Shown: piece after piece, positions 11,108 through 62,652 of the stretch
How positions within the stretch are numbered: the stretch's first letter is position 1
Layout: the number at the start of each line of letters is the position of its first letter
From: Escherichia phage UE-S1
Length of the DNA stretch: 64,000 nucleotides
Sequence record: ON568341.1
Reading direction: 5' to 3' (one strand)
The notes under the pieces: model-generated
What the model was told of the DNA's origin: nothing
The model's input: only the letters and a program-made list of their open reading frames with translations
The model's database searches: none
Position numbers and translations under genes: made by a program

Positions 11108-13426
11108 ATGATTAACGTAACCAAGCGTAATGGAATGAAAGAACCGTTATCATTGGATAAGATCCATCAGATTTTATTTTTCGCTGCTGAAGGTCTAAGT
11201 GGTGTTTCAGTTTCTGAAATTGAAATTCGTGCACAACTTCAGTTTTATGAGGGTATTGAAACCAGTACTATTCATGATATTCTGATTAAAGCAGCCGCAG
11301 AACTTATTTCAGAAGATACACCAAATTATCAATATGTTGCTGGTAGGCTATTAAATTATAGTATTCGTAAGCAAGTGTATGGACAGTATGACCCGATTAA
11401 ATATGCTGCTCATCTTCAAGAAATGGTTGATATCAAAATATATGATCCTGAAATTCTTGAAAAATATACTCTTCAAGAAATAGAAGAGCTTGGGCGTTAC
11501 ATCAAACATAAACGTGACGATAAATTTACTTATGTTGCAATGCGACAATGGGAAGGAAAATACCTTTACAAAAACCGCGTTACTAAGAAAATTTACGAAA
11601 CTCCACAAATGGCATATATGACTATTGCAGCAATCATCTTTATGGAATATGATCGTTCCGTTCGTATGTCATATGTTAAAAAGTTTTATGATGCAGTAAG
11701 TAACTTTGACATTAGTCTTCCTACACCTATTATGGCTGGTCTACGTACAAACACCCGCCAGTTTAGCTCTTGTGTAGTGCTAAATGTTGGTGACAGCTTG
11801 GATAGTATTGGTTCATCTAATCACGCCATTCTACGTTATATTTCACGTAAAGCTGGCCTTGGTATTAATATGGGCCGCATTCGTGCCCTGGACTCCGAGA
11901 TTCGTTCAGGTGATGCAGTACATACTGGATTGATTCCGTTCATTGCAGCTACTGCTAAAACTGTTAAAAGCTGTTCACAAGGTGGTGTTCGTGGTGGAGC
12001 AGCAACTGTTCACTTTCCATTATGGCATTTGGAATTTGATAACTTGGTAGTTCTTAAAAACAACAAAGGTACTGAGTTTAACCGTGTACGTCAACTGGAC
12101 TATTGTTTCCAAGTAAACAAAACTTTGTATCAACGTTTGGTTGATGGAAAGAATATCACGTTCTTTAGTCCTAATGAAGTTCCTGGGTTATATGAAGCAT
12201 TCTGCTCCAATCAAAAAGAATTTGAAAAACTATATAAAAAATACGAATCTGACCAAAGTATCCGTAAAAAATCCGTACCTGCCGTTGAAGTATTCAGTAC
12301 TTTAATGACGGAACGTGCAGAAACTGGTCGTATATATATTCAAAATATTGACCATGCAAACACTCATTCAACATTTATTGAATCAATTGCACCTATCGAA
12401 CAATCCAACTTGTGTCAAGAAATCGCACTACCATCTGTTCCATTTGATGACATTAATACTGGTGAAGGTTTGATTAGTTTATGTACCTTGAGTGCAATCA
12501 ACTGGGGCAACTTTGACCGTCCAGAAGAGATGGAAACTGCATGTGATCTTTCTGTTCGTGCTCTTGATTCATTATTGGACTACCAAGACTACCCAGTAAT
12601 TCATGCAGACAGAGCAACCAAAATGTATCGTCCACTAGGTGTTGGTATTATTAACTTTGCATACTTCCTTGCTAAACGTGGTTTACGTTATGATGAAGCA
12701 GCATTGGAAACCGTTAACGAGTGGGCTGAAGCATGGTCTTACTATCTAATTAAATCTTCTGTACAGCTTGCTAAAGAGAAAGGTAAATGTGAAGGATTTG
12801 ATAATCTAAAATATGCCAAAGGTATCCTTCCAATTGATACTTATAAGTCTGACATTGATGAATTAGTAACTAAAGAACTAAAACAAGATTGGGAATCTTT
12901 ACGTGCAGATATTAAAGAATATGGTATTCGTAACGCAACAACAATGGCATTAATGCCAGCAGAAACAAGTGCACAAATTAGTAACAGTACTAACGGTATT
13001 GAAAAGCCACGTTCTCTTGTAACTAAGAAACTATCTAAGGATGGTATTCTTAAACAAGTAGTTCCAGAAATTAATAAGTTGAAAAACAAATATGATTTAC
13101 TATGGGATCAGAAAGATAACATTGGTTATCTACAAATTTGTGGTGTTCTACAAAAATACATTGACCAAAGTATCAGTGTTAATACCAGTTATAACCCAGC
13201 ACACTTCCCTGATGGGAAGTTACCAATGTCAACTCTCCTAACTGAGCTTATGTATGCATATAAGGTTGGTTTGAAAAATCTTTATTATCATAATACAAAT
13301 GATGGTTCAGATGAAGTAGACGTTGAGAAAGTACTGAAAGAAGCAGCAAAGCCAGAATCAGGACAGTTTGTCTTACCTACATTACCAGACTTAGATGAAG
13401 GTGATTGTGATAGCTGTAAAATCTAA
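11108..13426 (+). CDS. nrdA: ribonucleotide reductase class Ia large subunit
   Basis: 772 aa; N-terminal ATP-cone-like segment, active-site NLCQEI, C-terminal Cys pair CDSCKI; followed by nrdB. Confidence 0.9.
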   Translation: MINVTKRNGMKEPLSLDKIHQILFFAAEGLSGVSVSEIEIRAQLQFYEGIETSTIHDILIKAAAELISEDTPNYQYVAGRLLNYSIRKQVYGQYDPIKYAAHLQEMVDIKIYDPEILEKYTLQEIEELGRYIKHKRDDKFTYVAMRQWEGKYLYKNRVTKKIYETPQMAYMTIAAIIFMEYDRSVRMSYVKKFYDAVSNFDISLPTPIMAGLRTNTRQFSSCVVLNVGDSLDSIGSSNHAILRYISRKAGLGINMGRIRALDSEIRSGDAVHTGLIPFIAATAKTVKSCSQGGVRGGAATVHFPLWHLEFDNLVVLKNNKGTEFNRVRQLDYCFQVNKTLYQRLVDGKNITFFSPNEVPGLYEAFCSNQKEFEKLYKKYESDQSIRKKSVPAVEVFSTLMTERAETGRIYIQNIDHANTHSTFIESIAPIEQSNLCQEIALPSVPFDDINTGEGLISLCTLSAINWGNFDRPEEMETACDLSVRALDSLLDYQDYPVIHADRATKMYRPLGVGIINFAYFLAKRGLRYDEAALETVNEWAEAWSYYLIKSSVQLAKEKGKCEGFDNLKYAKGILPIDTYKSDIDELVTKELKQDWESLRADIKEYGIRNATTMALMPAETSAQISNSTNGIEKPRSLVTKKLSKDGILKQVVPEINKLKNKYDLLWDQKDNIGYLQICGVLQKYIDQSISVNTSYNPAHFPDGKLPMSTLLTELMYAYKVGLKNLYYHNTNDGSDEVDVEKVLKEAAKPESGQFVLPTLPDLDEGDCDSCKI

Positions 13427-13471: not shown

Positions 13472-14245
13472 ATGAAAGTAGATTATTTTAAACCAATTAG
13501 TATTGGTTTCATTGAGGAATTTTGGGATGATTTGGACATGGATATGATTGTCCGTCATCAAAAGCTTCCAGACGATTTCATTAAGAAGCATTTTGATAAA
13601 ATGAACCCTAACATGTTGGTTCGTTATCAAACCATGTCGATTGATTTCATAAAAGAAAAATGGGAATGGTTTGATAAGAACATTTTGGCAACATATGTTG
13701 TCATGCCACTAGAACTCATTAAAGAGAAGTGGTATGATTTTAAAGATAACTTTCTTGGAACAGTTGCAAAATACCAAAAAATGTCATTGGATTTTATCCA
13801 AGAAAAATGGGATGACTTTGTAGAGTTTAAAAATGGCGTAATGTCAGAAATCTCACGTTACCAAAAACTAACTTTGGATTTCATACAAGAGAAGTGGGAA
13901 TATATAGATAAGAATTATATTTCTTATTATCAAACTTTAACTGTTGATTTCATCAAAGACAACTTGGAAGAACTTAATGTTGCTGCGGTATCTGCATTCC
14001 AAATTATTTCTGATGATGTTCGAAATCTTATGGGATTGGATGCACCAGCAGCAACCATTACAGGAAACCAAATATTAGCTCTAGACCCGTGTCCAGAGGG
14101 TATGGCACGATATAACGCCCATACCCCTGATAACACAACGGTACTGACATGGAATGAATTATTACAAAAACACTTGGGTACACAGGAAGGAATTCGTGAT
14201 ATCCATTGGCTGTCTTATAAACTAGGACATAACATCAATACATAA
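13472..14245 (+). CDS. tandem-repeat protein (about 7 repeats of a DFI(K/Q)EKW-containing unit), function unknown
   Basis: Periodic repeats, e.g. KLPDDFIKKHFDK, TMSIDFIKEKWEWFDKN, KMSLDFIQEKWDDF, KLTLDFIQEKWEYIDKN, TLTVDFIKDNLEE; sits between nrdA and nrdB. Confidence 0.55.
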   Translation: MKVDYFKPISIGFIEEFWDDLDMDMIVRHQKLPDDFIKKHFDKMNPNMLVRYQTMSIDFIKEKWEWFDKNILATYVVMPLELIKEKWYDFKDNFLGTVAKYQKMSLDFIQEKWDDFVEFKNGVMSEISRYQKLTLDFIQEKWEYIDKNYISYYQTLTVDFIKDNLEELNVAAVSAFQIISDDVRNLMGLDAPAATITGNQILALDPCPEGMARYNAHTPDNTTVLTWNELLQKHLGTQEGIRDIHWLSYKLGHNINT

Positions 14246-14264
14246 TATATAAGGAAATATATAA

Positions 14265-15389
14265 ATGTCCGTTTTTAAAATTAACGAAAAATCACACTTA
14301 GAAAAAAATATGTTTTTTGATGAAAGTGTTGACATTCAACGATTTGAAAGTGTAAAATATTCAGCACTAGAGAAACTAACTGAACAACAAAAAAGTTTCT
14401 TCTGGACCCCAGGAGAAGTTGATGTATCTAAAGATAAAATTGATTTTGCCAACCTTAATGATTCAGAGAAGCACATTTTTACCTCTAACTTGAAGCGTCA
14501 AATTCTTCTTGATTCTGTACAAGGTCGTGGCCCAAACTTAATGTTACTACCATATGCATCTCTACCGGAACTAGAGAACTTTATTGAGACATGGGCATTC
14601 TTTGAAGGTGCGATTCATAGTAAATCATACACTCATATTATTCGTAACATTTATCCTAATCCATCTGAAGTGTTTGATACTATGTTGGACATTCCAGAAA
14701 TCACCGATTGTGCGGCTGATGTATCTAAGTATTATGATGAACTAGATGAGCTAGGTACATGGTATAAAGTTCTGGGTAAAGGAACTCACAATGTCAATGG
14801 TAAAACTATTGTCGTTGATATGTACGAACTTAAAAAGAAAATGTGGTTGTGTCTGAATAGTATTAACATTCTTGAAGGTGTGCGTTTTTACGCAAGTTTT
14901 GCCTGTTCGTGGGCTTACGCTGAAAATAAACTTATGGAAGGTAATGCTAAAATTATTCGTCTAATTTGTCGTGATGAAAATTTACACTTAGCGGCAACAC
15001 AAATGATTCTCCGACTACTCAAGAAAGAAGATCTAGACTTTGCAAAAATCGCAGAAGAGTGCTATGATGAAGTACTGGAAATGTTTATGTCTGCAATTCG
15101 TCAAGAAGAAGCTTGGGCAGACTTCCTTTTTAAAGATGGTTCAATCATTGGTCTGAATGCAGAAATCCTAAAACAATATGTTCGCTGGATTGGTTCTAAA
15201 CGTATGTCGGCACTAGGAATTAAATGTCCATATACTGTATCTAAGAGCAACCCACTACCTTGGACTGAGCATTGGGTTAGTGGTGGTTCAGTACAAGTTG
15301 CACCACAAGAAACGGAAATAAGTTCTTACATCATTGGTGGTATTGTGAATGATATCCAAGGAGATACATTTACACCATTCAAACTATAA
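14265..15389 (+). CDS. nrdB: ribonucleotide reductase class Ia small subunit
   Basis: 374 aa; ferritin-like di-iron signature region FFEGAIHSKSYT; directly downstream of nrdA. Confidence 0.85.
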   Translation: MSVFKINEKSHLEKNMFFDESVDIQRFESVKYSALEKLTEQQKSFFWTPGEVDVSKDKIDFANLNDSEKHIFTSNLKRQILLDSVQGRGPNLMLLPYASLPELENFIETWAFFEGAIHSKSYTHIIRNIYPNPSEVFDTMLDIPEITDCAADVSKYYDELDELGTWYKVLGKGTHNVNGKTIVVDMYELKKKMWLCLNSINILEGVRFYASFACSWAYAENKLMEGNAKIIRLICRDENLHLAATQMILRLLKKEDLDFAKIAEECYDEVLEMFMSAIRQEEAWADFLFKDGSIIGLNAEILKQYVRWIGSKRMSALGIKCPYTVSKSNPLPWTEHWVSGGSVQVAPQETEISSYIIGGIVNDIQGDTFTPFKL

Positions 15390-49636: not shown

Positions 49637-50070
49637 ATCCAAAAAAGTTTTTTGATTTATTAGGTATTACATCTATACCGGATTTAACAAGTGAAACAAA
49701 CGAATATCGTGATGTTGGAATTGTATCATTGGAATATGATACATTTGACTTTAAATGTTACATAACATATGATGTTGAAACCTATACTAAAAAATCATCA
49801 TACATTTTTGTGTTCATATATAATGATTATAGTGATAATAAACTGAATGATGTTCATATTGACACATTCGAAATATGTGGTAATATTATATCAGATGAAT
49901 CGTCATCTACATTTGATTTGGAGTTAAACAGTACTGAAGAGTCACTTTTTCAGTTGAGTACTATAAGTGACACTATATTAACACCAGATGACATTGAGAA
50001 ATTTAAAGAACATCTTGACGCAGTTCGTGAGATGTTCTATAATCATTATCCAGAAGTGGAGTTCAAATAA
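49630..50070 (+). CDS. member of FQxST-motif paralog family
   Basis: STEESLFQLSTISDT. Confidence 0.5.
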   Translation: MLNPKKFFDLLGITSIPDLTSETNEYRDVGIVSLEYDTFDFKCYITYDVETYTKKSSYIFVFIYNDYSDNKLNDVHIDTFEICGNIISDESSSTFDLELNSTEESLFQLSTISDTILTPDDIEKFKEHLDAVREMFYNHYPEVEFK

Positions 50071-50084
50071 CTAAAGGTAATAAG

Positions 50085-50345
50085 ATGACTAAAGTAGTTC
50101 GTAAACGCCATATGATGAACATGGATGAATTTCGCACATTTGACAAATATCGTACTATGTTTCGTATGCTTTCACAGGGCCGCCCAATTGTCATTGTAAC
50201 AGAGAATTACATGTCACCTGAGATTATGTTTGGTAATTATGAAAAGGTCTTCATGCTGTACGTGAAGCGTGGATTACTTACAATCAAGACATTAGCTGAA
50301 GCAACTGATGAAGATATGGATGGTGATAATACCTTTACCATGTGA
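50085..50345 (+). CDS. hypothetical protein (86 aa)
   Basis: ORF in track. Confidence 0.4.
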   Translation: MTKVVRKRHMMNMDEFRTFDKYRTMFRMLSQGRPIVIVTENYMSPEIMFGNYEKVFMLYVKRGLLTIKTLAEATDEDMDGDNTFTM

Positions 50346-50422
50346 GGAAATATATGTCTGAAAAACCAAAAGAACCTTTAGACCGTGATGATGATTTTTA
50401 TGACGAACGATATGGAGATGAT

Positions 50423-50675
50423 AATGAGTGAACATAGTGCGGTGCTTAAAAAGATTTTAAAGGAAATTGATGGTGAGTTTAATGTCACAGAAGAAGAATA
50501 TCAGCATTGGAAGAAAGATTTCGAACAACTAACCGAGTATGATAAAGTGTTCAATATGATTGGTGTAATTAGCCAGTACTTACTCGGTGGAGGACGTGCA
50601 AGTGCTTCAATTCTGGCATCTGCAATCATCTGTACATCACGATGGTGTGATGAAAAAAGTTTGGAAGATTTCTAA
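50423..50675 (+). CDS. hypothetical small protein
   Basis: Track ORF 50385-50675; ATG at 50423 after GGAGATG. Confidence 0.35.
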
Positions 50676-50690
50676 ATAAGATGCTATAAT
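50661..50690 (+). promoter_or_regulatory. candidate promoter (TTGGAA-18-TGcTATAAT)
   Basis: Extended -10 at 50682-50690 upstream of methyltransferase gene. Confidence 0.4.
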
Positions 50691-50727
50691 ATATTATAGT
50701 ACCTTAACAATATAAAAAGGATTTTAT

Positions 50728-52608
50728 ATGAAACCTATCCGAGTACTATCTCTTTTTAATGGGATGAGTGTAGGATACATGGCATTAAAAGATGCTGGTA
50801 TCCCTGTTGAAAAATATTATTCATCCGAAATTGACAAATTTGCTATAGCTGAATCCCAAGCTAACTTCCCCGATATCATCCAATTGGGTGATGTAACTAG
50901 ATGGAAAGAATGGGATATCGAATGGGACAAGATAGATCTACTGATGGGTGGTTTTCCATGCTTCCCAGCAGGAACTATGATAATGACAAATAAAGGTCAT
51001 AAAGATATAAAAGATATAAAAATTGGTGATATGGTTCTTACACACACTGGACAGTACCAAAAAGTATTGAGTACTGGTGTTAAAAAGGCTCCCACTCGTA
51101 TTATTACAGGTCAAGGTCACCTTCCAATTGAATGTACCGATAATCATCCATTTTGGAGTAGGGAACGTCTAGCCAATAAATGGAATAATCAACGCCGAAG
51201 ATATGATTCTGTGTTTTCTGAACCGCAATGGGTAAATGCTATAGATCTTACTAAACAAAGTTATATTTGTAATGTTAAAAATATTACACATAATACAGTA
51301 AGTGATAAAGATGAAAAATATTGGTATTTTGTTGGTCGTTTTATGGGTGATGGATGTGCTAGTGTATCTAATAACAAATACAGTATTACTATTGTAGATT
51401 CATTAGATAAAGTTGATGAATTGAAAAAATGTTTTGATGATTTTGGATACAAATACACATTAGCTATTAAAGATAATCATGTAAGATGTGATATATATAG
51501 CAAAAAGCTTTATGATGAATTAATATGTATTGGGCATAAATCACAAAACAAATGTTTACCACCTGAAATATTCAATGAAACTATCAATAACAAAGAAGCA
51601 TTTATTAAAGGATACATGGATGCAGATGGTTGTGAGGATAAACACAATAAAAAATACAAATTTACCACCACAAGTTATAAAATAGTTCTTGGTATGCAAC
51701 AGTTAATCTTAGATACTTATCAACGTCATTGTACTATTAGTCAAACTGTTCCAAAAACAAAAAAATATATAAAAAATAAGTTGGTTAATCAGCTTCCGTA
51801 TTGGAATGTTCATTTTAGCTATAATAAAATTAAAAGAGATGATGTAATATATGATGAAATTTATATATGGAATCGTGGTGTAAAAAGTAATGTACCAACC
51901 GGAGAATGGAAAACCGTTTACAATATTGAAGTTGCAGTAGATAACACATATACGGCGAACAATATTGTAGTTCATAACTGCCAAGCGTGGTCAGTTGCAG
52001 GTAAACAGGGTGGAATAAATGATCCTCGTGGTATGTTATTCCATACAATGGTTGATATTTACCAGCACATAAAAAGTCTCAATCCAGACTTGAAAGTACT
52101 GTTCGAGAATGTTAAAATGAAAGAAGATTTCAAGCAATACATTAATAGTGTTCTTGAGATGACACCAGTACTGATAAATTCCCAGCATTATACGCCTCAC
52201 TTCAGGCAGAGATATTACTGGTACAGTACTGATAAACTTTTTATACCACCTGCATTATCAAATGCACCTAAACTTCAAGATATTATTGAAGATGGTTGGT
52301 ACACTGACAGAACCGCTTCGTACTGTATAGATGCTAACTATTTTAAGGGTGGGGATTGTAACCAGTACTTTAATAAATCAAGAAGACAAATTGTTTTCAA
52401 AGAACCTGATATCGATAGGGATTTCCTTCTTGAACATGGTAAGCGAAATGTGGACTATCGTCATTTAACAGTACAAGAGTGTTGCATGTTGCAAGGAATT
52501 GATGTAAACTACTTCAAAGTTAGTAGTTCAACACAAGCATACAAAATGCTTGGGAATGGATGGACTATGCCAGTTATATCACACTTACTACGAGATATAT
52601 TCTTTTGA
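50728..52608 (+). CDS. C5-cytosine DNA methyltransferase interrupted by an intein
   Basis: Exteins carry motif I LSLFNGMSVG, motif IV GGFP|CQAWSVAG (reconstituted across the intein), ENV motif VLFENVKMK, FRQRYYW and LGNGWTMPVISHLL; intein inserted before the catalytic Cys. Confidence 0.85.
   Translation: MKPIRVLSLFNGMSVGYMALKDAGIPVEKYYSSEIDKFAIAESQANFPDIIQLGDVTRWKEWDIEWDKIDLLMGGFPCFPAGTMIMTNKGHKDIKDIKIGDMVLTHTGQYQKVLSTGVKKAPTRIITGQGHLPIECTDNHPFWSRERLANKWNNQRRRYDSVFSEPQWVNAIDLTKQSYICNVKNITHNTVSDKDEKYWYFVGRFMGDGCASVSNNKYSITIVDSLDKVDELKKCFDDFGYKYTLAIKDNHVRCDIYSKKLYDELICIGHKSQNKCLPPEIFNETINNKEAFIKGYMDADGCEDKHNKKYKFTTTSYKIVLGMQQLILDTYQRHCTISQTVPKTKKYIKNKLVNQLPYWNVHFSYNKIKRDDVIYDEIYIWNRGVKSNVPTGEWKTVYNIEVAVDNTYTANNIVVHNCQAWSVAGKQGGINDPRGMLFHTMVDIYQHIKSLNPDLKVLFENVKMKEDFKQYINSVLEMTPVLINSQHYTPHFRQRYYWYSTDKLFIPPALSNAPKLQDIIEDGWYTDRTASYCIDANYFKGGDCNQYFNKSRRQIVFKEPDIDRDFLLEHGKRNVDYRHLTVQECCMLQGIDVNYFKVSSSTQAYKMLGNGWTMPVISHLLRDIFF
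50959..51978 (+). mobile_element. intein with LAGLIDADG homing-endonuclease domain (340 aa) inside the methyltransferase
   Basis: Starts with Cys (CFPAGTMIMT), block B TDNHPF, two LAGLIDADG-like motifs (FVGRFMGDGC, IKGYMDADGC), ends IVVHN with +1 Cys. Confidence 0.8.
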
Positions 52609-53090
52609 ACATAAACAAACACCAAACTTATATAAAACGTGCAGAAAGTTTCAAACGGCTGGCTGTAAAATCTGAATTAGAATTTAATTTGTATTATCCT
52701 AATATTGGTGATGAGGTATTTTATTGCTCACATTCAAAGAATGGAACTTTACTTAAATCGGGTAAAGGAACTATTGTTGATATGACCGCAAATTTCAGAG
52801 GTAAACTTAATGTAATGTACAAAGTGCAAGATTCAAGTACTGAGTGTATCCATGAAGTGATGCATAACATACCTGCATATCCAAAAGATTTTGTTCAGCT
52901 AATATCTCGAAGGGAGAAACCTATGTTTTATTGTGGTTACGACAAATTAACCAAACAAATTATTCCTAATACTATGGGAAAATTTAAAAGTGATGTAAAA
53001 TCTGAACTAGAAAAGAAATTTGGTACATCATGGGAAACTGAAAACGAGTTTATCGAAATTCGTTTAATTGAAGTTACTATTCTTGATTAA
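52560..53090 (+). CDS. hypothetical protein (start uncertain)
   Basis: ORF overlaps methyltransferase 3' end by 49 nt if first start used; first in-frame Met beyond the overlap lies far downstream. Confidence 0.35.
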   Translation: MDYASYITLTTRYILLNINKHQTYIKRAESFKRLAVKSELEFNLYYPNIGDEVFYCSHSKNGTLLKSGKGTIVDMTANFRGKLNVMYKVQDSSTECIHEVMHNIPAYPKDFVQLISRREKPMFYCGYDKLTKQIIPNTMGKFKSDVKSELEKKFGTSWETENEFIEIRLIEVTILD

Positions 53091-61370: not shown

Positions 61371-61890
<520 letters not shown>

Positions 61891-61891
61891 A

Positions 61892-62071
61892 ATGACACAC
61901 AAAGAATGGATGTCCAAACAACATAAAGAACATGATTTCTTTGGGAATGGTATTCGTCAGGTACACTATGACATCTTAAGAGATGAAAATCTTTTCAGGT
62001 CATATGTTTTGGATACCAGAAAACCCTGGTTTATATGCGAACTGGCATTTAGAAAAACAATCAAACAATGA
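61892..62071 (+). CDS. MTHxEW mini-protein family member 2 (59 aa)
   Basis: Hand-translated: MTHKEWMSKQHKEHDFFGNGIRQVHYDILRDENLFRSYVLDTRKPWFICELAFRKTIKQ. Confidence 0.45.
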   Translation: MTHKEWMSKQHKEHDFFGNGIRQVHYDILRDENLFRSYVLDTRKPWFICELAFRKTIKQ

Positions 62072-62165
62072 ATATAGAAAATTGCGTTAGTGTATCTAAA
62101 GCACTTGCATAAATGATTAATTCATTATATAATGATTATCATTGGTTCTAAATGAGGATAATATT

Positions 62166-62438
62166 ATGCATTTTGAAAAATTCAACACAAGTCGTGACAC
62201 ACGCATTGATGTTCTTTATGAAACACAAGACTCAATTAGTATTCGTACACGTAGTGGTGATGTATATCATGACTGCACTATTGGTTGGAAACAGGGAAGA
62301 ACACGTAGTGCAGAATTCGATAATTATCGCTTCTTCCAAGATGACACCACAATCTGGCCTGAAGATGTAGAAGATATTGCAATCGAAGATGAACATAAAG
62401 ATGAATTTATCAAATTTAATCCCCAAACCGAATCATAA
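62166..62438 (+). CDS. hypothetical protein
   Basis: Track ORF 62142-62438; ATG at 62166 after GAGGA RBS. Confidence 0.4.
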   Translation: MHFEKFNTSRDTRIDVLYETQDSISIRTRSGDVYHDCTIGWKQGRTRSAEFDNYRFFQDDTTIWPEDVEDIAIEDEHKDEFIKFNPQTES

Positions 62439-62452
62439 ATAATGGGACAGCA

Positions 62453-62571
<119 letters not shown>

Positions 62572-62575
62572 AATA

Positions 62576-62652
62576 CGGGGTATAGCACAATTGGATAGTG
62601 CAAGAGAATTCTAATCTCTAGGTTGGGGGTTCAAGTCCCTCTACCTCGGCCA
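62576..62652 (+). tRNA. tRNA-Arg (anticodon UCU), CCA encoded
   Basis: Acceptor CGGGGTA/TACCTCG, D-arm GCAC-AATTGGATA-GTGC, anticodon stem AGAGA/TCTCT with loop ATTCTAA, T-arm GGGGG-TTCAAGT-CCCTC, then GCCA. Confidence 0.8.

Follow-up and report, generated by a model that had tools for sequence, protein, structure and literature searches.

A class-1 LAGLIDADG intein at the catalytic Pro-Cys dipeptide of a jumbo coliphage C5-cytosine methyltransferase, with signs of recent spread

The stretch analysed here, called the window, is 64,000 nucleotides (nt) of Escherichia phage UE-S1 (ON568341.1). A single open reading frame (ORF) on its plus strand, 50728..52608, encodes a protein of 626 amino acids (aa) and 73.0 kDa, identical to UTS53451.1 of this phage, which belongs to the genus Asteriusvirus. 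We read this protein as the precursor of a C5-cytosine DNA methyltransferase split by an intein. The N-extein (aa 1-77, 50728..50958, +) covers motifs I-III together with half of motif IV, as far as GGFP, as aligned to motifs I-IV of DNMT3A. It is followed by the intein (aa 78-417, 50959..51978, +; 340 aa, 39.6 kDa), which is of class 1, with Cys1 and a terminal His-Asn. The C-extein (aa 418-626, 51979..52608, +) begins with Cys418 of motif IV (codon 51979-51981) and goes on to ENV, QRYYW and GNGW of motifs VI, VIII and X.

The methyltransferase motifs were assigned by alignment to DNMT3A and M.HhaI (a FxGxG-like motif I, PC in IV, ENV in VI, RxR in VIII, GNG in X). They read LFNGMSVG (I), GGFP/CQ (IV, contiguous after splicing only; here and below the slash marks the insertion point), FENV (VI), FRQRYYW (VIII) and GNGWTMPVI (X). 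The Pfam model DNA_methylase (PF00145, cut-off 22) matched the precursor in three pieces with 101.4 bits, and the score climbed to 122.2 bits once the intein was deleted in silico. With TIGR00675 (the dcm model, cut-off 100.65) the precursor scored 95.3 bits, below the threshold, whereas the protein spliced in silico scored 114.9 bits, above it. The first-pass annotation of this DNA had called the ORF a C5 methyltransferase and had proposed comparing the spliced exteins with Dcm-like enzymes; the PF00145 and TIGR00675 scores, the motifs, and the alignments to DNMT3A and M.HhaI all agree with its call. It had also held that removal of the insert restores motif IV, and deletion of aa 78-417 does leave a 286-aa protein with GGFPCQAWSVAG. 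The nearest solved structures to this spliced methyltransferase were the DNMT3A/3B catalytic domains (E ~3e-24), with M.HhaI and M.HaeIII ranking after them (1e-17 to 1e-14). In sequence the spliced product (50728-50958 joined to 51979-52605) is nearer to mammalian DNMT3A/3B, of similar length, than to M.HhaI or M.HaeIII. All these comparisons mark the gene as one for a C5-cytosine DNA methyltransferase. The enzyme is an orphan and belongs to an Asteriusvirus jumbo coliphage.

The Cys of motif IV is the catalytic nucleophile in C5 methyltransferases. In the alignment GGFPCQAWS pairs with the DNMT3A motif-IV stretch GGSPCNDLS, which puts the insertion at the P/C of motif IV and the intein directly before the catalytic Cys, as had been claimed. 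Because the intein stands between Pro77 and Cys418, the catalytic loop is split and the catalytic Cys doubles as the +1 splicing nucleophile; from the split loop, the precursor can soundly be expected to be inactive as a methyltransferase before splicing. An anti-restriction role has been proposed for the intein-less orthologue of phAPEC6 and for UE-S1 (PMC7247149, PMC12805682). The methyltransferase would plausibly shield phage DNA from restriction.

The insert shows the expected parts of a bifunctional intein. Its N-terminal splicing region (aa 78-145, 50959..51162, +) opens with block A, CFPAGT..., and holds block B, TDNHPF, at 51136-51153 (aa 137-142), where TDNH (aa 137-140) provides the Thr-x-x-His; these two residues, T60 and H63 in intein numbering, are nearly invariant across the family alignment. 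The LAGLIDADG homing-endonuclease core (aa 190-380, 51295..51867, +) is delimited by a profile match and a two-half fold in the structural model, and contains motif 1, FVGRFMGDG (aa 201-209, 51328-51354, +), and motif 2, IKGYMDADG (aa 293-301, 51604-51630, +), which end in the acidic residues Asp208 and Asp300. The C-terminal splicing region (aa 395-417, 51910..51978, +) comprises blocks F and G, ...VYNIEVAVDNTYTANNIVVHN, and the intein closes with IVVHN (Asn417), followed by Cys418 as the +1 residue. The first-pass annotation had listed the initial Cys, TDNHPF, two LAGLIDADG-like motifs and a final IVVHN plus Cys in a 340-aa insert, and each was found where it had placed them. The profile search that it had suggested gave scores over the gathering thresholds for both domains: Hint_2 covered aa 77-134 with 34.3 bits (cut-off 28.4) and LAGLIDADG_3 scored 40.5-42.8 bits (cut-off 22.5). 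In the same search of the precursor, Intein_splicing (PF14890) and the C-terminal model TIGR01443 stayed below their cut-offs. The guanine-plus-cytosine content of the intein, 29.7%, is low yet at the 7th percentile of the window, and it was dropped for that reason as a signal.

A sequence-only search of the PDB with the intein gave weak matches, among them its N-terminal part to the gp41-1 intein at E 3e-4, so a fold search was required. An AlphaFold (AF2) model built from 22 homologues reached a predicted local distance difference test score (pLDDT) of 90.9 and a predicted template-modelling score (pTM) of 0.89. It consists of a beta-rich splicing domain and two alpha-beta-beta-alpha-beta-beta-alpha halves, with Asp208 and Asp300 at the ends of model helices 119-131 and 209-223. 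Foldseek against the PDB matched the model to PI-SceI (E 3e-18), to the TliVMA and PhoVMA inteins (template-modelling score on the query, TMq, up to 0.74), to PI-PfuI and to PI-TkoII, and the endonuclease half resembles I-DmoI (E 2e-7). Motifs, profiles and predicted fold all identify the insert as a canonical intein of class 1 that includes a LAGLIDADG endonuclease domain and sits in the type of site that inteins usually occupy.

Empty alleles of the same gene are common in related phages. An intein-less allele of 861 nt is found in about 30 further Asteriusvirus genomes, among them 121Q, PBECO4 and phAPEC6; its 286-aa product can be aligned with the exteins over the whole length, and precisely aa 78-417 are missing from it. 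Gene product gp91 of 121Q is the precise empty allele, the window protein minus aa 78-417; the DNA of its motif-IV site reads ...ATGGGTGGTTTCCCA/TGCCAAGCCTGG... A scan of IMG/VR found intein-less relatives only. Filled alleles are fewer. The window gene is 99.2% identical to its orthologue in Escherichia phage ph0011 (genus Asteriusvirus), and the 626-aa protein, identical or nearly so, occurs as 8 sequence variants on ~20 independent contigs, with the frame uninterrupted in ph0011 (Brazil), UE-S1, several E. coli assemblies and read-archive assemblies. Three further phages, TH47, A4 and JNE01, carry a homologous intein at the same codon. The intein goes unmentioned in the records of ph0011, A4 and JNE01 ("DNA cytosine methyltransferase" or "hypothetical protein"), the TH47 record has no annotation whatever, and the word "intein" is absent from the UE-S1 paper. 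The "DNA cytosine methyltransferase" names given to members of the protein's sequence cluster are equally silent about it. The intein-bearing protein has also been deposited repeatedly as "Escherichia coli" (WP_170998953.1, EHV4444105.1, others) on contigs of 346-357 kb, which are probably complete Asteriusvirus genomes in bacterial assemblies, through a carrier state or contamination.

Comparison with ph0011 points to an allele that has moved. The window is 88.5% identical to ph0011 over 64 kb (median 500-nt segment 89%) and 99.2% over the methyltransferase gene. The inferred recombination or co-conversion tract, 49890..52612 (left edge approximate), is 93-100% identical to ph0011 amid DNA of ~65-90% identity; apart from 50251-52500, which lies within it, no stretch of the window keeps >=97% identity to ph0011 for more than 1 kb, and the right edge falls at the methyltransferase stop codon. 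Nucleotide identities to the window were then compared for intein, exteins and flanks. They were 99.4%, 99.0% and 83.1% in the ph0011 background; 99.9%, 99.1-99.2% and 86.0-86.2% in three contigs with protein variant P0182 and 121Q-like flanks; and 97.7%, 86.3% and 84.8% in a contig with variant P0186. One intein (97.7-99.9% in nt) is thus shared by at least four genome backgrounds with flanks of only 83-86% identity. The end points of the tracts vary between backgrounds, which implies separate transfer events.

The best P0182 contig (L026) gives the sharpest view. Its flanks are nearly those of 121Q, each 250 nt showing 0-4 mismatches. Within the gene, the contig departs from 121Q at 24 positions of the N-extein, by the 1020-nt intein, and at ~106 positions in the C-extein and on to ~35 nt beyond the stop codon. 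Replacement thus begins ~20 nt downstream of the start codon and reaches that same point, with ~130 mismatches in total plus the intein. This before-and-after pair suggests the co-conversion signature of homing, such as would be left by break repair that an endonuclease had initiated, although general recombination, frequent here, keeps it from being proof of cleavage. Taken together, the patterns suggest that the intein is probably mobile and has spread recently between related phages.

An intein-only query of 5.8 billion proteins gave 31 matches, and in 26 of the 31 an intein interrupts a C5 methyltransferase at this P/C position. The same-site inteins comprise mini-inteins of 140-154 aa, forms of 214-289 aa with 0 or 1 LAGLIDADG motif, and full-length ones of 331-367 aa; a spectrum from mini to full size is expected from the homing cycle. 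Isolated phages with such an intein are Lactobacillus phage Nyseid, a P1 isolate and P1-like phages (in dmt), Mannheimia phage 587AP2, Erwinia jumbo phages and Pseudomonas phage Lana. The inteins of Nyseid, OP279344, RCS47, 587AP2, pEa_SNUABM_5, Lana and 26 metagenomic sequences share the identical insertion point and are homologous to the window intein, although at 22-49% identity, and some are mini or decayed. In the P1 isolate OP279344 (locus L008, 2270-5311), RCS47 and Ro157c2YLVW, dmt holds a full-length same-site intein with the junctions GGTP/C...VVHN/CQAFSIAG; the OP279344 record, the sole one examined of the P1 group, does not annotate it. In Mannheimia phage vB_MhS_587AP2 (locus L007, 1264-3100) the frame with the same-site intein stops 22 codons past the C-terminal junction and the annotation divides the methyltransferase into two coding sequences, so this copy may be frameshifted or decaying. 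A metagenomic relative, P0001, with a related methyltransferase and a 264-aa intein without LAGLIDADG motifs, was considered as a syntenic decayed allele and rejected, its flanking genes differing from those of the window. For these inteins elsewhere, the records examined carry no intein annotation and no paper describing them was found. Our literature search (InBase lay outside its scope) returned no report of an intein in a C5 methyltransferase.

Among the Asteriusvirus phages the site holds two kinds of intein, here called type A (the allele of the window) and type B (that of TH47, A4 and JNE01). They occupy the same codon of the same gene and their splicing blocks are 85-100% identical in aa (N-terminal region 85-90%, C-terminal region 96-100%), whereas the endonuclease cores are only 40-43% identical (56% in nt). 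In A4 the DNA to either side of the core (aa 41-112 and aa 391-450) is 96% identical to the window, against 56% for the core (Fisher p 2e-53), so the core was exchanged by recombination inside the intein. A domain swap relative to all type-B inteins was rejected. For TH47 and JNE01 the synonymous substitution rate (dS) is saturated in arms and core alike (1.4-1.9); stronger constraint on the arms therefore suffices to account for the contrast, and recombination is required for A4 only. Among 1.84 billion cluster representatives, nothing but its own allele exceeded 37% identity to the endonuclease core of the window. The ratio of nonsynonymous to synonymous rates (dN/dS) was 0.04-0.14 in the splice regions and 0.07-0.14 in the exteins, values at which splice blocks and exteins are, by this measure, under strong purifying selection.

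We consider it likely that the 73-kDa precursor splices itself and that its LAGLIDADG endonuclease homes the intein into empty alleles with co-conversion. Splicing would begin with an N-S acyl shift at Cys78 and proceed by trans-thioesterification onto Cys418, cyclisation of Asn417 and an S-N shift that joins GGFP to CQAWS. The products would be an active methyltransferase of 33.4 kDa, with the junction peptide GGFPCQAWSVAGK (also given as ...IDLLMGGFPCQAWSVAGK), and the free intein of 39.6 kDa. In a mixed infection the LAGLIDADG domain would cut intein-less alleles at the motif-IV coding sequence, and repair off the intein-positive genome would copy the intein together with flanking extein DNA.

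Several observations weigh against this picture of splicing and homing. The splicing regions have a dN/dS of 0.04-0.14, but between types A and B the core reaches 0.4-0.66, perhaps because constraint on it is relaxed; type-A sequences are so nearly identical that selection on the type-A core is not measurable. Mosaic tracts occur elsewhere too, in this gene and its neighbourhood, and homologous recombination is frequent in these phages, so that allele replacement is possible without an endonuclease. These points, with the want of close relatives of the type-A core and the commonness of decayed and mini inteins at the site, favour an intein that splices while its endonuclease is inactive or decaying, spread having come about by general recombination and vertical descent only. 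We regard this as unlikely, since both LAGLIDADG motifs and their acidic residues are intact, the domain folds confidently in the model, and random recombination does not predict tracts that are centred on the intein, with differing end points, around a 97.7-99.9% conserved intein in four backgrounds with flanks of 83-86%. Doubts about splicing itself come from two residues. Position -1 is Pro, which engineered inteins tolerate badly and on which a literature search found nothing usable, and the block F position, often occupied by Asp, is Asn. As the methyltransferase is also probably dispensable to the phage, the gene might be a dead carrier of a selfish element whose intein no longer splices. 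That seems highly improbable to us: none of the canonical nucleophiles is missing, nor is the Thr or His of block B, exteins and splice blocks appear to be under strong purifying selection, the frame is intact in ~20 contigs, and both odd residues are common to the whole same-site family, including many full-length members, and so give no sign of decay.

The intein might instead time the methyltransferase in infection as a post-translational switch, with splicing conditional on the redox state of a Cys78-Cys418 disulfide, on temperature or on DNA binding. The identity of the +1 nucleophile with the catalytic Cys and the presence of Cys at both junctions would fit such a switch, and conditional splicing is documented for other inteins, for instance the RadA intein (PMC4513877). 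Nothing in the sequence calls for it, however; most Asteriusvirus phages lack the intein, and its patchy distribution suits a selfish element better than a regulator, so we hold regulation of this kind to be very unlikely. An intein both selfish and conditional, in which a redox or infection-stage signal gates splicing and hence protective methylation, also strikes us as improbable, if slightly less so. To the same improbable reading belongs a related idea, in which the two swappable endonuclease cores on one splicing scaffold would reflect an ongoing specificity race with intein-less targets. Finally, an ORF made of two genes fused by sequencing error, or by mis-assembly, was among the outcomes that the first-pass annotation had named as fatal to its reading, together with a missing Hint match. 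Hint_2 does match, the same 626-aa frame recurs in independent isolates and assemblies, and three more phages have a homologous intein at the same codon. The artefact therefore has next to no probability and is, on these independent sequences, already refuted. Self-splicing with homing remains the reading that we prefer.

Other features of the window were noted. The longest downstream ORF, 52560-53090 (+), shares 49 nt with the 3' end of the methyltransferase gene, whereas its homologue in 121Q overlaps that gene by 4 nt, starting at the stop codon. The tract of high identity to ph0011 stops exactly at the overlap of the two genes. Between the genes for ribonucleotide reductase alpha (11108-13426) and beta (14265-15389) lies an ORF of 257 aa, 13472-14245 (+), with repeats of ~33 aa (...YQKMSLDFIQEKWDDF...), where the two genes of ph0011 are just 55 nt apart. 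The ORF gave no Pfam match but corresponds to phrog_3532 (unknown function) with E 5e-34. Its position recalls that of mobE between nrdA and nrdB in T4, and the idea that it is a free-standing homing endonuclease was rejected, no nuclease signature or motif being found. Three tRNA genes, Gly-TCC, Ser-TGA and Arg-TCT, lie at 61577-62652 (+); the equivalent spot in ph0011 is taken by a pair, tRNA-Ser and tRNA-Arg.

With this locus, C5-cytosine methyltransferases join the list of intein hosts, at their catalytic Pro-Cys dipeptide. What is added is an unreported host enzyme and insertion site and population evidence of recent spread; the known picture of how inteins work is left unchanged. The phages are E. 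coli jumbo phages that can be cultivated, and their natural empty alleles, two types of filled allele and one near-isogenic before-and-after pair make them a convenient system for studying intein homing, co-conversion, and fitness cost and benefit in a putative anti-restriction enzyme.

Among known systems, the best structural matches are PI-SceI (yeast VMA1), TliVMA/PhoVMA, PI-PfuI and PI-TkoII, which are likewise class-1 bifunctional inteins with a HINT domain and a nested two-motif LAGLIDADG endonuclease. They differ in sequence (10-16% identity), in size (430-537 aa versus 340 aa here) and in host, which is a V-ATPase, ribonucleotide reductase or polymerase. The inteins of mycobacteriophage and actinophage DNA methylases (DNMT-1/2; the Dorothy_75 family of Gosselin et al. 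2023, PMC9957025) are distant homologues, at 24% identity over the full length. The DNMT-1/2 hosts of mycobacteriophages have been classed as N6/N4 methylases (Kelley et al. 2016, PMC5050341). The one junction examined there lies at an unrelated site (HV/C ... KN/CPLQFD), whereas the host in the window is a C5 methyltransferase and the +1 residue its catalytic Cys. Some records (e.g. NC_026588.1, NC_031262.1, MT553345.1) name intein-bearing mycobacteriophage methylases "anaerobic ribonucleoside reductase large subunit" or "DNA helicase", and phrog_26446 ("anaerobic RNR") matches the window protein at the intein part only (aa 78-428); the misnaming looks like annotation carried over through intein homology. 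Endonucleases of phage introns, such as I-TevI of the T4 td intron, home with co-conversion of the flanking exons. The 121Q-like pair resembles that system in that an empty allele appears to have been replaced along with flanking coding sequence, although the T4 element is an RNA intron and the one described here is an intein, which would act at the protein level.

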